Assembly (NCBI RefSeq): GCF_002087085.1
Contig: NZ_MWQY01000018.1
Span: 1-64,000, forward strand
Length of the DNA stretch: 64,000 nucleotides
Reading direction: 5' to 3'
Shown here: in pieces, positions 6,001 to 9,000 of the stretch
Numbering within the stretch: the first letter of the stretch is position 1
Layout: each line of letters begins with the position of its first letter
Position numbers: made by a program

Positions 6001-9000
6001 ACCTTGCCGCTTTCAAGAACCTCCTCAACCTCGCAGGTACTGAGGGTAAAGCGCTCGGCAAGATCGTGAGAACTCATCGCCGGCAGTTCTACATAATCAT
6101 GAATCCAGTCCATGGAAATCTTCACAGCAGTCCTCCTAGTAAGCCTTGAACTGGGAGACGAAGCGCAGGTCCCCAGAACGCAGATGGCGAATGTTGTCGA
6201 TGCCGTAGCGCATCATAACCAGACGGTCCCAGCCCATTCCGAAGGCGAAACCGGAGTAAAGATCCGGATCGATGTTGCCGTAGCGCAGCACCCGGGGATG
6301 CACCATACCGCAGCCCAGGGCCTCGACCCATCCAACCTGCTTGCAGACAGAGCAGCCCTTGCCGCCGCAGAGCAGACACTTGTAATCCAGCTCAAAGCCG
6401 GGCTCAACAAAGGGAAAGTACCCGGGACGCAGCCGCACCTCGAGTTCTTTATGGAAAATCTCCGAGAGCAGAGTCTTGAGAAAATGGACCAGGTGAGCTA
6501 CCGAGACCCCTTCTCCAACCATCATCCCCTCTATCTGCCGGAAGGCCGCCTCGTGGGAGGCGTCGATGGCCTCGTTCCGAAAGACCTCCCCGGGACCGAC
6601 AAACTTGAAAGGTGGCCGGTGTTTTTCCATTCCCCGCACCTGGATCGGAGAGGTATGGGTCCTCAGCAGGTGGTGCATATCGGAAAACCAGAAGGTGTCC
6701 TGCATATCCCGGGCGGGATGATTGGCGGGAATATTCAGGGCCTCGAAGTTATAGTAGTCGCTTTCGATGTGGGGACCGTCGAGTATATCGAATCCCATGG
6801 AGATAAAGATGTCCTCCACTTCCCGCCCGATGGCGGTGAGAGGGTGGTATCCGGCGCTGCCGAGGCCCCGGTCGCGGAGGGAATCCAGCAGCGAAATGTC
6901 CTGCCGTTCCGATGCCAGCCTGCGGTCGATCTCTTCCCGTTCGATCCGGACAGCGGCCTCATCAATTTCCGAAAGGATCTTCTGCTTAAGTTCGTTGGAA
7001 AGGGGACCCAGGGTTTTCCGCTCTTCCGGGGTCGCATCCTTGAGGCTTTTCAGAATCTCGTTGAGCCTGCCCTTTTTGCCAAGGTACTCCGCTTTGATGG
7101 TGGCCACCTCGGCACCGGTAGAGACAGCGCCGATTTCGCGGGAAAACTCGGCGTACAGACTTTCTAAGCGTTCCTCCATGGAATAACTCCTTTTAAAAAC
7201 AAAAAAGCGGGTCCCTCCTCTTTCAAGGAGAAACCCGCCGCATTTACGCTGATCACACCACGATCATGGCAGCCCGGGTCCCTCCTGGGTGCTAAAAAAG
7301 AAAAAAAAGAAGGAAAAAAATATGCCCTGCATACCTGTCATGGTGGCTTTATTATAGCGACGAGGACGATACTGTCAAGGCGCAGATAGAGCTCACTGGA
7401 TTAGCGCTACAAGGAGAGGAGGTCCTTCACTAGGTGAACAACGTTACGGACCTCCTCTCCAGTAGCGGCATAATTTGTGCCATCTCTCCGTGCGGACAGT
7501 TTCGTCCTCGCACTTGATGGCGCCTATGGTTCGGGGTGGACAGTACGGCCTCCGTGGGCGTAATAATAGTACCATGGCGAACAAAAAGAATACGTATTGC
7601 CTGGTCCTCGGCGGAGGCGGCGGCCGGGGTGCCTATGAAATCGGGGTCTGGCGGGCCCTGCGGGAACTGGGCATTGGTTTTCACGCTGTAGCGGGGACCT
7701 CTGTCGGGGCCCTGAATGCCGCCTTCGTTGCCCAGAACGATTACGAAGGAGCCATGGAGCTTTTCTCCTTTGCCACCATCAGGGACATTGCGGACGTTCC
7801 GGAGAAATTTCTCAAGGACGGCAGGATCAATCGTGATCTGAACAATCTTCGTCGTCTCAGCAGTTATGTTCTGTCCCGACGGGGACTTGATACATCCCCC
7901 ATGAAAAAGCTCATTAATCACTATCTCCGGGAAGAGACGATCAGAAAGTCCGGGATCGATTTTGGCCTTGTTACCTTCGATCTGTCACAATTCAGACCCC
8001 GGCATCTCTTTCTCGAAGACATACCGGACGGTCAGCTGGCTGACTATCTCCTTGCCAGCGCTTCCTACCCCCTGTTCCGCAGTCCCGTTATTGACCAGTC
8101 AAAACTGACCGACGGTGGCGTAGCCGACAATATGCCCTACAACATGATGAAGGAACGGGGTTACCGGCGCATCATTACTGTCAACCTGTCCGGAGTGGGA
8201 CGTACCAGGCGTCCCCAGACGGAAAACACCCAGACCGTATACCTGAAAAACTCCCAGCCCCTGGAGGGAGCCCTGGAAATCTGTCCGGAAAATTCCCGCA
8301 GGGCAATGGATCTTGGATACCTGGATACGCTGCAGAGCTTCGAGGAGATAGACGGCATACGCTACTTTATTCAGAACGACCTGCCTCTCTTCCGCTCCCT
8401 GGAGGAGCATTTCTTTAACGAGAGGAACCTCCCCTTGATGCGATCCGCTGCCAAAGGGCTGATAAAAACGGAAAAAGGCGCCCCGTCGAAACCTGAACAC
8501 CTGGTGCGGAAGCTCCTGCCCAGGGACCTGGCAAAATACCGCTTCCCGGTGATTCCTGCCATCGAATGTACCGCCATCTGTCTGGGAATTCCCCGGGAAC
8601 CCCTCTATTCCCTGCCTGAACTTATCCGGCTTATCAGGGAAGAGGAACAGAAGCTCGGTAGCATCGAACCCTTTACTGAACAGGAGAATTTTCCGGGACT
8701 TGTCCGGCGTCTGCGCGGTGAACTTGATTCCCTGAAAACCGCAGGGCTTCTGCAACTGCCCCCCGCACGTTACGTAACGGCTCTTCGAACAGTTACAGGC
8801 ATGAGCGACGGGAACTTCGCCGTGCGAATGCTGCACCCCCTGTTCCCGGAGCTTCCCGTCGCGAATCTGATGCTCCGTATTATCCAAAGCAGTACCGGTT
8901 TTTTCTATTGACCTGAATGAAGGGTGACCATACAATCATACTACACGGAATCATAATCCTTAAGGAGAAAAGATATGAAAAAGATTTTAGTATCTGTCAT

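Follow-up and report, generated by a model that had tools for sequence, protein, structure and literature searches.

The pheS-pheT operon in this spirochaete was very probably controlled by a ribosome-mediated (leader-peptide) transcription attenuator. The window, that is, the whole stretch of DNA analyzed, comprised 64,000 nt (positions 1 to 64,000 of contig NZ_MWQY01000018.1). Upstream of pheS, it contained a short open reading frame (ORF) with Phe codons, an intrinsic terminator, an antiterminator pairing exclusive of the terminator, and a leader stop codon at a position suited to masking the antiterminator strand, the last being an argument from geometry. All four were present and conserved, which supported the attenuation proposed in the survey's finding. 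The gene pheS (6136..7179) encoded the alpha subunit of phenylalanyl-tRNA synthetase, a protein of 347 aa of the short bacterial type (Pfam PF01409, E 9.9e-89, and PF02912). The gene pheT (3675..6125) encoded the 816-aa beta subunit (Pfam B3_4, B5, tRNA_bind, tRNA_synthFbeta, and FDX-ACB). Both genes and all leader features described below were on the minus strand. The start of pheT was 10 nt past pheS, and the two genes were therefore presumably co-transcribed. In two metatranscriptomes, whose assembled contigs are blind to transcript starts, ends, and levels, one RNA contig covered 6763-7174 inside pheS and none covered the leader, where the T-run was passed over as a repeat.

The gap between the pheS ATG (7179) and the ATG of a divergent patatin-like gene (7574) was 394 nt. 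Within it, the leader ORF (7264..7341) comprised 25 codons plus TGA, with the ATG at 7341 and the stop at 7266-7264, and encoded MTGMQGIFFSFFFFFFSTQEGPGLP. Eight of the 25 codons specified Phe, six of them consecutively. The regulatory tract FFSFFFFFF (7294..7320) consisted of six TTT, two TTC, and one TCC codons. The ORF was preceded by a promoter with the -35 hexamer TTGACA (7373..7378) and, after a 16-nt spacer, the -10 hexamer TATAAT (7351..7356), which ended 9 nt before the leader ATG. Its two hexamers matched the consensus at 12 of 12 positions, and between 7000 and 7700 one such site was found, against 0.4 expected. The earlier description of this region, with its gap length, TTGACA-16-TATAAT promoter, and uncalled ORF, was borne out base for base.

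The Phe density was scanned across the whole genome in 31,073 ATG-initiated ORFs of 8-45 aa, with a window of nine codons. The leader ORF ranked first, with 8 of 9 codons. Four ORFs contained at least six Phe codons per nine-codon window, and among them only the pheS leader adjoined a Phe-related gene.

The class Spirochaetia was then represented by 55 genomes with a short bacterial-type pheS, in which Phe-rich ORFs of at most 60 codons were sought upstream of this gene. Such a leader was found in 29 of the 55 genomes, belonging to seven families (f1, f2, f7, f11, f23, part of f35, and f41). A covariance model built from the 29 leaders (R1) recovered all of them, with no match in the remaining 26 pheS loci. 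The same architecture was not found in 29 loci from other classes. When 150 further genomes of the phylum were searched with R1, five weak matches were obtained (E 3e-4 to 1e-3); none of them was on the contig holding pheS, and they were rejected as pheS leaders. A pattern of TATAAT followed by ATG and five TTY codons was also searched (at least 117 loci, mostly in A+T-rich genomes), and 0 of 117 among the matches listed were found with pheS, a result that has no bearing on other phyla.

The survey's finding had reported the region in all five other genomes of the genus and, by BLAST, in none of 15 other Spirochaetia genomes, with seven to nine Phe in each leader. The five relatives indeed carried it, with 69-93% identity, and their leaders were Phe-rich, but with seven to eight Phe. 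The absence outside the genus was not confirmed. The ORF-based search detected the leader in 22 genomes outside the genus, and weak BLAST matches were present beside pheS in two other families. The genus-only range was a BLAST artefact, and the true range was a large part of the class.

The promoter was conserved among the 29 leaders. A promoter search that ignored the ORF found a match with zero to two mismatches of 12 upstream of pheS in all of them, and the -35 hexamer was TTGACA or TTGACT in 27. The distance from the -10 hexamer to the first ATG was 8-12 nt in 29 of 29. Transcription was predicted to start at ~7344 (A, the seventh nt past the -10 hexamer), which would leave a 5′ UTR of ~3 nt; from the same promoter geometry, 5′ UTRs of ~1-5 nt were predicted in all 29 relatives. 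No purine-rich Shine-Dalgarno sequence was present before the leader ORF. Because of this, and because the ATG was so close to the -10 hexamer, the mRNA from which the leader is translated is probably leaderless or nearly so. Efficient translation was an assumption, since the Shine-Dalgarno sequence was absent. In this genome, ATGs opening ORFs of at least 100 aa were more frequent at 6-8 nt past strong -10 boxes than at other spacings (20, 16, and 10, against ~3-4), and leaderless starts were considered plausible. The spacing in the leaders was slightly beyond this peak. Neither the missing Shine-Dalgarno sequence nor the short distance to the -10 hexamer had been mentioned in the survey's finding.

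The leader was followed by an intrinsic terminator. Region 3 (GGCGGGTTTCTCCTT, 7225..7239) formed its 5′ arm and served at the same time as the antiterminator 3′ strand. It was joined by a GAAA loop (7221-7224) to region 4, the 3′ arm (7206..7220), after which came the T-run TTTTTGTTTTT (7195..7205). The stem had 15 pairs in the MFE structure, eight of them G-C, and the stability of the hairpin was about -26 kcal/mol. A hairpin plus T-run was located between the leader and pheS in all 29 relatives, with at least five T after each hairpin, and the terminator was present in the full-length MFE structure of 27. Thus the terminator that had been described ahead of the pheS ribosome-binding site was recovered with both of its arms and its T-run.

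A leader that senses Phe might, instead of governing intrinsic termination, act on the translation of pheS, on mRNA stability, or on Rho-dependent termination. There is a precedent for such an output in leaderless sensory short ORFs that, in the accessible text of a preprint, act on a downstream ribosome-binding site (bioRxiv 10.1101/834739), and the start 8-12 nt past the -10 hexamer resembles these ORFs. However, the pheS Shine-Dalgarno sequence AAGGAG (7187..7192) was outside the hairpin and 3′ of both hairpin and T-run, and it was unpaired in the MFE structure. In addition, the run of T after all 29 hairpins is the mark of an intrinsic terminator. An output other than intrinsic termination was considered very unlikely.

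The antiterminator 5′ strand, region 2 (AGGAGGGACCCG, 7275..7286), was located within the leader ORF, 8 nt ahead of the stop. Its 12 nt exactly repeated positions 7219-7208 of the terminator 3′ arm, and region 2 can therefore pair with the 5′ arm instead. This duplication had been noted previously; the copy of the 3′ arm was exact, but only 12 of the 13 nt originally quoted were identical. When the 3′ arm was omitted, region 2 paired with 12 of the 15 nt of the 5′ arm in the MFE structure, and the duplex of regions 2 and 3 surpassed every one of the 1,488 background windows taken from the locus. In the MFE structure of the naked RNA, region 2 paired with region 1 (7307-7314), which is part of the Phe codons.

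The same alternative was predicted in the relatives. In 28 of 29 leaders, the MFE structure computed with the 3′ arm omitted paired the 5′ arm to a segment 3-25 nt past the Phe run. Pairing of region 2 to the 5′ part of the leader was predicted in only 18 of 28. The arm sequences varied between families while both pairings persisted; the pair types tabulated for the two pairings came from MFE predictions and were canonical by construction. When ranked against every 30-nt window of its own locus, the antiterminator duplex had a median rank of 0.6%, was in the top 1% in 15 of 29 leaders, and was the best in nine. Compared with shuffles of each sequence, its z-score ranged from -0.6 to -4.9, and for 15 of 29 leaders no more than 5 of 200 shuffles reached the same stability; this per-sequence support was only moderately convincing. 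In a fixed-register covariation count over all 29 leaders, 68.4% of cells were paired, compared with 64.7% in shuffles, and a slide by -1 gave 68.8% with a higher covariation score. The registers slip in such a count because the helices are purine-rich against pyrimidine-rich. The pairing register also differed between families, and the count is not taken as evidence of covariation. What the sequences show is the anatomy of the leader, the conservation of this anatomy, and the alternative pairings.

These statistics bear on another explanation, in which partial termination at the hairpin is constitutive, or the hairpin ends a small RNA, and the Phe ORF is a by-product of a T-rich tract without any sensing. 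T-runs give Phe in any frame, the antiterminator fold was close to its shuffled controls for roughly half of the leaders, and the slid register performed as well as the original one in the covariation count. However, in each of the 29 relatives the first ATG after the independently found promoter was in the frame of the Phe run with its C-containing codons, although the spacer lengths varied and four to nine codons preceded the run. The tract was specific to the region upstream of pheS, it was the most Phe-rich of the 31,073 ORFs scanned in the genome, the stop position relative to region 2 was conserved, and the 12-mer duplicate was exact. We regarded a by-product of this kind as most unlikely.

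The position of the stop codon connected the ORF with the pairing segments. Region 2 could be defined in 28 of the 29 leaders, and in all 28 the stop was within it or at most ~20 nt 3′ of it. Therefore, a terminating ribosome would mask region 2. We infer where transcription starts, that the leader is translated, and that it responds to Phe, as follows. RNA polymerase would start at the consensus sigma-70 promoter, ~3 nt before the leader AUG, and a ribosome would load on the leaderless-like 5′ end and translate the 25 codons centered on FFSFFFFFF. If Phe-tRNA(Phe) were plentiful, the ribosome would reach the stop and cover region 2; region 3 would then pair with region 4, the 15-bp terminator would form, and RNA polymerase would stop before pheS. 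If charged tRNA(Phe) were scarce, the ribosome would stall in the first Phe codons (7320-7300) and leave region 2 free to pair with region 3 once this was made, so that no terminator would form and pheST would be transcribed. Without translation, the Phe-codon tract (region 1) would sequester region 2, and transcription would terminate by default.

The ORF was kept as an ORF in 29 genomes, which would also be expected if the 25-aa Phe-rich peptide itself mattered, as a small hydrophobic protein, and its position before pheS were incidental. However, the peptide tails differed between families (EGPGLP, RKNSGFS, EGHRLSLQ, and KGC), with little in common beyond the Phe run, and they followed the RNA pairing segments. 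The length of the peptide varied from 20 to 29 aa, and it was found only in front of pheS. A function of the peptide as such was hardly credible.

T-boxes or autoregulation control many genes for aminoacyl-tRNA synthetases. The switch might be set by a trans factor, such as uncharged tRNA(Phe), PheRS, or another RNA-binding protein, and not by a translating ribosome. However, neither the T-box nor another Rfam family reached the gathering score in any of the 55 pheS loci, and no conserved element resembling a specifier loop was seen. Conservation was confined to the frame of the ORF, its Phe codons, and the three segments that pair; a trans factor in control of the switch was scarcely to be expected.

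At the locus itself (6900-7800), the Rfam search gave nothing at E ≤ 10 except chance matches of the microRNA type, in agreement with the lack of an Rfam match reported in the survey's finding. The Phe_leader family (RF01859, gathering score 55 bits) gave no match at the gathering score in the 29 leader loci and none at E ≤ 10 in 6900-7800, and the positive control, Escherichia coli K-12, scored 75 bits. Homology to the E. coli pheM leader was rejected: RF01859 missed the spirochaete leaders and R1 missed pheM, despite the F-S-T and CAGGAGG common to both. Judged by these models, the spirochaete leader is an analogue of Phe_leader and not a member of it. We lean toward the view that a vertically inherited family of Phe-sensing attenuators, with a leaderless or near-leaderless leader, acts on pheST across a large part of Spirochaetia, and that it arose independently of the enterobacterial pheM leader by convergent design.

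A second leader-peptide attenuator was not seen among 82 small ORFs behind leaderless-type promoters in this genome, where only the pheS leader was biased toward a single amino acid. Independent indications of this mechanism in the organism were therefore lacking in its genome. Two Trp-containing candidate leaders were rejected, as one corresponded to a tRNA gene promoter and the other to an intragenic site.

Attenuation by a leader peptide is a textbook mechanism. Nearly all documented cases come from Proteobacteria, Actinobacteria, and a small number of Firmicutes, and the attenuator described here, if true, would extend the mechanism to Spirochaetota and be the first of its kind in the phylum. 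No report of a spirochaete pheS leader peptide was found in the literature searched. A survey by Lopatovskaya, Seliverstov, and Lyubetsky (Mol Biol 2010;44:128), which reportedly covers the attenuation of aminoacyl-tRNA synthetase operons across bacteria, may hold related predictions. In the accessible part of another study, in which T-boxes and leader-peptide switches were discussed, the authors stated that they knew of demonstrated leader-peptide systems in Proteobacteria and Actinobacteria alone, and they added Firmicutes (PMC2965389).

If true, the present case would indicate that a synthetase operon can be controlled by a leader peptide without a T-box. The relatives would offer ~29 natural variants of one switch, differing in arm sequences and stop positions, for the study of attenuator evolution. 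The sensing ribosome would have to load on a bare 5′ end when only a few nucleotides had been made, so that transcription-translation coupling would begin at the start of the transcript without a Shine-Dalgarno sequence or a long leader. This leaderless start may be the most useful point, as it would provide a natural system for a ribosome keeping pace with RNA polymerase, with termination decided ~100 nt later. The element also suggests a rule for annotating the "empty" gap of ~400 nt before pheS in these genomes: a consensus promoter, an ATG within 8-12 nt, a Phe run, and a terminator.

The classical amino-acid attenuators include trp, his, leu, thr, ilv, and pheA in Proteobacteria, trp and others in Actinobacteria, and his in some Firmicutes. 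They share with the pheS leader the four-segment design (1:2, 2:3, and 3:4), the cognate codons, and the intrinsic terminator. The pheS leader differs from them in its phylum, in serving a synthetase and not a biosynthetic operon, and in its putative leaderless start. The pheS T-box of Firmicutes (RF00230) concerns the same genes and likewise makes a choice between terminator and antiterminator that reports the charging of tRNA(Phe). However, the sensing in the spirochaete leader would be performed by the ribosome and not by direct binding of the tRNA, and none of the 55 loci gave a T-box match. The mycobacterial leaderless poly-Cys short ORFs, as far as the accessible text of the preprint by Canestrari et al. 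describes them (bioRxiv 10.1101/834739), unmask a ribosome-binding site. They are sensory short ORFs at the very 5′ end of a leaderless mRNA, as is predicted for the spirochaete leader, in which stalling on a run of one codon reshapes the RNA downstream. Compared with this type as described there, the regulated structure in the spirochaete leader is a terminator with a T-run, the pheS ribosome-binding site is outside it, and the amino acid and the phylum are different.

The pheM leader of the pheST-ihfA operon in E. coli (RF01859) controls pheS-pheT, as is predicted for the spirochaete leader, and it also consists of a short ORF with Phe codons and an antiterminator/terminator pair with a T-run. 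Read from the sequence, the pheM ORF has 14 codons, five of them for Phe. CAGGAGG is the antiterminator 5′ strand there too, and the pheM peptide ends with F-S-T, with which the tail of the spirochaete leader starts. However, the E. coli leader is located after rplT and has an untranslated, AAGG-bearing stretch before its ATG, whereas the spirochaete -10 hexamer ends 9 nt before an ATG without a Shine-Dalgarno sequence. In E. coli the stop is just before region 2, whereas the 25 codons of the spirochaete ORF read through region 2.

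The predicted attenuator ahead of pheS is real, conserved and well-formed. It occupies a 394-nt gap between pheS (ATG at 7179, minus strand; PF01409 and PF02912) and a divergent patatin-like gene (ATG at 7574; Pfam PF01734). Along the minus strand, the gap contained a -35 box TTGACA (7378–7373) and a -10 box TATAAT (7356–7351) with a 16-nt spacer, together matching the consensus at 12 of 12 positions, and then the 25-codon leader ORF MTGMQGIFFSFFFFFFSTQEGPGLP, whose ATG (7341) lay 9 nt past the -10 box and whose stop was the TGA at 7266–7264. These were followed by a 15-bp terminator hairpin (arms 7239–7225 and 7220–7206, loop GAAA), T-runs as far as 7195 and the pheS Shine-Dalgarno sequence AAGGAG (7192–7187); pheT, with five PheRS-beta domains, was found 10 nt past pheS. 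The promoter, Phe-rich ORF and terminator described in the survey's finding agreed with the minus-strand sequence in every checkable detail. So did the proposed pairing of the leader end with the terminator 5′ arm: region 2, the antiterminator 5′ strand (AGGAGGGACCCG, 12 nt, 7286–7275, in the 3′ end of the leader ORF), was identical to 7219–7208 in the terminator 3′ arm and, being a copy of it, could replace it as the partner of the 5′ arm.

This anatomy and its conservation support the attenuation interpretation, and the sequence makes it very probable that the element is a ribosome-mediated transcription attenuator of the classical type. With ample Phe-tRNA, the ribosome would reach the stop codon and mask region 2, the terminator arms (regions 3 and 4) would pair, and transcription would end ahead of pheS. 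With scarce Phe-tRNA, it would stall in the first Phe codons, regions 2 and 3 would form the antiterminator, and RNA polymerase would enter pheST. If the leader was not translated, region 1 (part of the Phe-codon tract) would pair with region 2 and region 3 with region 4, giving termination by default. The naked leader RNA had a predicted fold of -58 kcal/mol (z = -3.6; 0 of 200 shuffles equally stable), in which the terminator was present and region 2 was paired with the Phe/Ser codons UCCUUCUU (7314–7307). The same fold paired the transcript 5′ end, including the leader AUG, with the stretch directly past the stop codon. The segment involved, TGATCGTGGTGT (7252–7266), opens with the stop codon, forms a small inner hairpin in the antiterminator state and was kept in five of the six Marispirochaeta genomes, the source genome included (others L032–L036); it may confine initiation to the short time that follows transcription start.

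A T-rich tract encodes Phe in any frame, and the background was therefore taken genome-wide, from 31,073 ATG-ORFs of 8–45 aa in the whole assembly (4.2 Mb). Only four small ORFs had at least six Phe per 9-codon window, and the pheS leader was the richest (8 of 9); none of the other three adjoined a Phe-related gene. The genome yielded no further attenuator of the leader-peptide type.

The survey's finding had the element in all same-genus genomes, which held (5/5, 69–93% identity), and in that genus only, which did not. Two weak BLAST matches in other families also adjoined pheS, and pheS was therefore located by protein across the class Spirochaetia. A sample of 201 genomes, source genome included, yielded 55 loci with a short bacterial-type pheS (E ≤ 1e-40), and 450 nt upstream of each was taken (260 nt at one locus, because of a contig end). 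A small ORF with at least five Phe per 9-codon window preceded pheS in 29 of the 55, so the genus-only range was an artefact of BLAST sensitivity. Among loci with a short pheS, the leader was present in all those of families f1 (7/7, a second genus among them), f2 (10/10), f7 (2/2), f11 (2/2), f23 (1/1) and f41 (2/2), in 5/8 of f35, and in none of f3, f16, f18, f27, f34, f38 and f44; f8 also had none, its contig ending within the region. A covariance model made from the 29 loci, R1, recovered all 29 and matched no locus among the remaining 26 (E ≤ 0.01). Outside the class, no Phe-rich ORF was found at the 29 best-matching pheS loci, and R1 on 150 further genomes gave five weak matches, none on a pheS contig. 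These matches (L259–L263 in G228, G303, G217, G299 and G298, other classes, E 3e-4 to 1e-3) may represent ordinary terminators, or attenuators with no relation to this one.

The leader label could be placed on a quick 63-row pheS tree with 2 changes, vs. 21.2 for shuffles, none of the 500 reaching so few, and one group (SH-aLRT 84) held 27 of the 29 leader genomes. The leader may be of single origin. A short pheS at E ≤ 1e-40 was missing in 146 of the 201 genomes; all five sampled genomes without it carried a long-form PF01409 gene (509–534 aa), none with a Phe leader. Archaeal-type PheRS is described for Borrelia and Treponema, and these long-form genes fit that type.

A hairpin with a T-run stood between leader and pheS at all 29 loci and was part of the full-length MFE fold in 27. 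When folding was limited to the RNA between the Phe run's end and the terminator loop, the state before the 3′ arm is made, the 5′ arm paired with a segment 3–25 nt past the Phe run in 28 loci; for the 29th, the wrong hairpin had been selected. When the duplex of the 5′ arm with the 30 nt past the Phe run was ranked against all 30-nt windows of the same locus, its median rank was 0.6% (top 1% in 15/29, best in 9/29). Region 2, the 5′ arm and the 3′ arm were AGGAGGGACCCG, CGGGUUUCUCCUU and GAGGAGGGACCCG in f1, GAGGAAUCC, GGAUUCCUC and GGGGAAUCC in f41, and GAGGGAGUC, GACUCCCU and AGGGGAGU in f7, and the peptide tails varied in step with the pairing segments (EGPGLP, RKNSGFS, EGHRLSLQ, KGC). In one fixed register for all 29, 68.4% of cells were paired vs. 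64.7% in shuffles, but a slide of -1 gave 68.8% with a higher covariation score. The helices set purines against pyrimidines, and their register varies among families. Single-sequence shuffle z-scores of the antiterminator ranged from -0.6 to -4.9. The leader stop lay inside region 2 or at most ~20 nt 3′ of it, and therefore a ribosome at the stop would cover region 2, whereas a ribosome waiting at the early Phe codons would leave it free. Pairing of regions 1 and 2 was predicted in 18 of 28. TTT made up 74% of the 221 leader Phe codons (163 TTT, 58 TTC), vs. 47% in long open frames of the source genome, a bias that may tune sensitivity or simply serve pairing with region 2.

A compact sub-type was observed at L053, L056, L057 and L066 (f7 and part of f35). 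Its leader ended in ...FFFMKGC or ...FFFFGKGC/E straight after the Phe run, its stop codon abutted region 2 (TGA GGGAGTC), and its terminator stem was only 7–8 bp; the antiterminator was the more stable full-length fold in two of the four.

A search of the 200 nt ahead of the Phe run for the best sigma-70 match, blind to any ORF, gave 0–2 mismatches of 12 at all 29 leader loci. The first ATG lay 8–12 nt past the -10 box and was in frame with the Phe run in 29/29, vs. one third expected without translation, with 4 to 9 codons ahead of the run; we infer that the leader is translated. None of the 29 leader ORFs had a Shine-Dalgarno sequence. With a spacing of 9 nt (8–12 in relatives), the 5′ UTR would measure some 1–5 nt from the putative start site, and we infer initiation of the leaderless type. 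Across 523 strong sigma-70-like sites in the whole source genome, ATGs opening ORFs of at least 100 aa numbered 20, 16 and 10 at 6, 7 and 8 nt past the -10 box, and ~3–4 at each other spacing. Such a pile-up is the accepted signature of leaderless mRNAs in the available part of PMC3160421, and this spirochaete seems to have many of them.

At 7413–7460 (either strand), in the stretch separating the pheS promoter from the patatin-like gene, lay a perfect inverted repeat of 13 bp, GGAGAGGAGGTCC ... GGACCTCCTCTCC, with a 22-nt loop. It is not part of the predicted pheS transcript and is single-copy in the genome. Rfam gave only chance microRNA-type matches to it (E ~2). The closest relative, G004, had almost the same loop and a different, longer stem, which looks like compensatory change. 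A protein might bind the repeat, or it might belong to the 5′ UTR of the divergent gene.

No T-box was found with Rfam in the window or at the 55 pheS loci. In Escherichia coli, the same kind of control acts on the same operon through pheM, annotated "pheST-ihfA operon leader peptide", which has 14 codons, five of them for Phe; CAGGAGG... and a terminator come next. Rfam RF01859 (Phe_leader) scored 75 bits on the pheM region vs. a gathering score of 55, but had no match in the window and none at the gathering score in the 29 leader loci, and R1 did not find pheM in E. coli. Membership of the pheM family was rejected, since neither model recognises the other's leader; by sequence, the spirochaete element would work like pheM while standing outside its family. 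Both leaders end the Phe run with TTT AGC ACC (F-S-T) followed by CAGGAGG, the antiterminator 5′ strand (window 7281–7296; E. coli locus L115, 5218–5238). Because neither covariance model finds the other, this likeness is probably convergence, and looks imposed by pairing with the Phe codons. The mycobacterial leaderless sensory short ORFs differ in acting on a ribosome-binding site, not a terminator, according to the available part of their report (bioRxiv 10.1101/834739). In the available part of PMC2965389, the authors name Proteobacteria and Actinobacteria as the only groups in which leader-peptide systems had been shown, and add Firmicutes to them; the literature searched, outside which lay the survey Mol Biol 2010;44:128, contained no report of such attenuation in spirochaetes. 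The mechanism is of a known kind; the phylum and the RNA family are new, and the start is leaderless-like.
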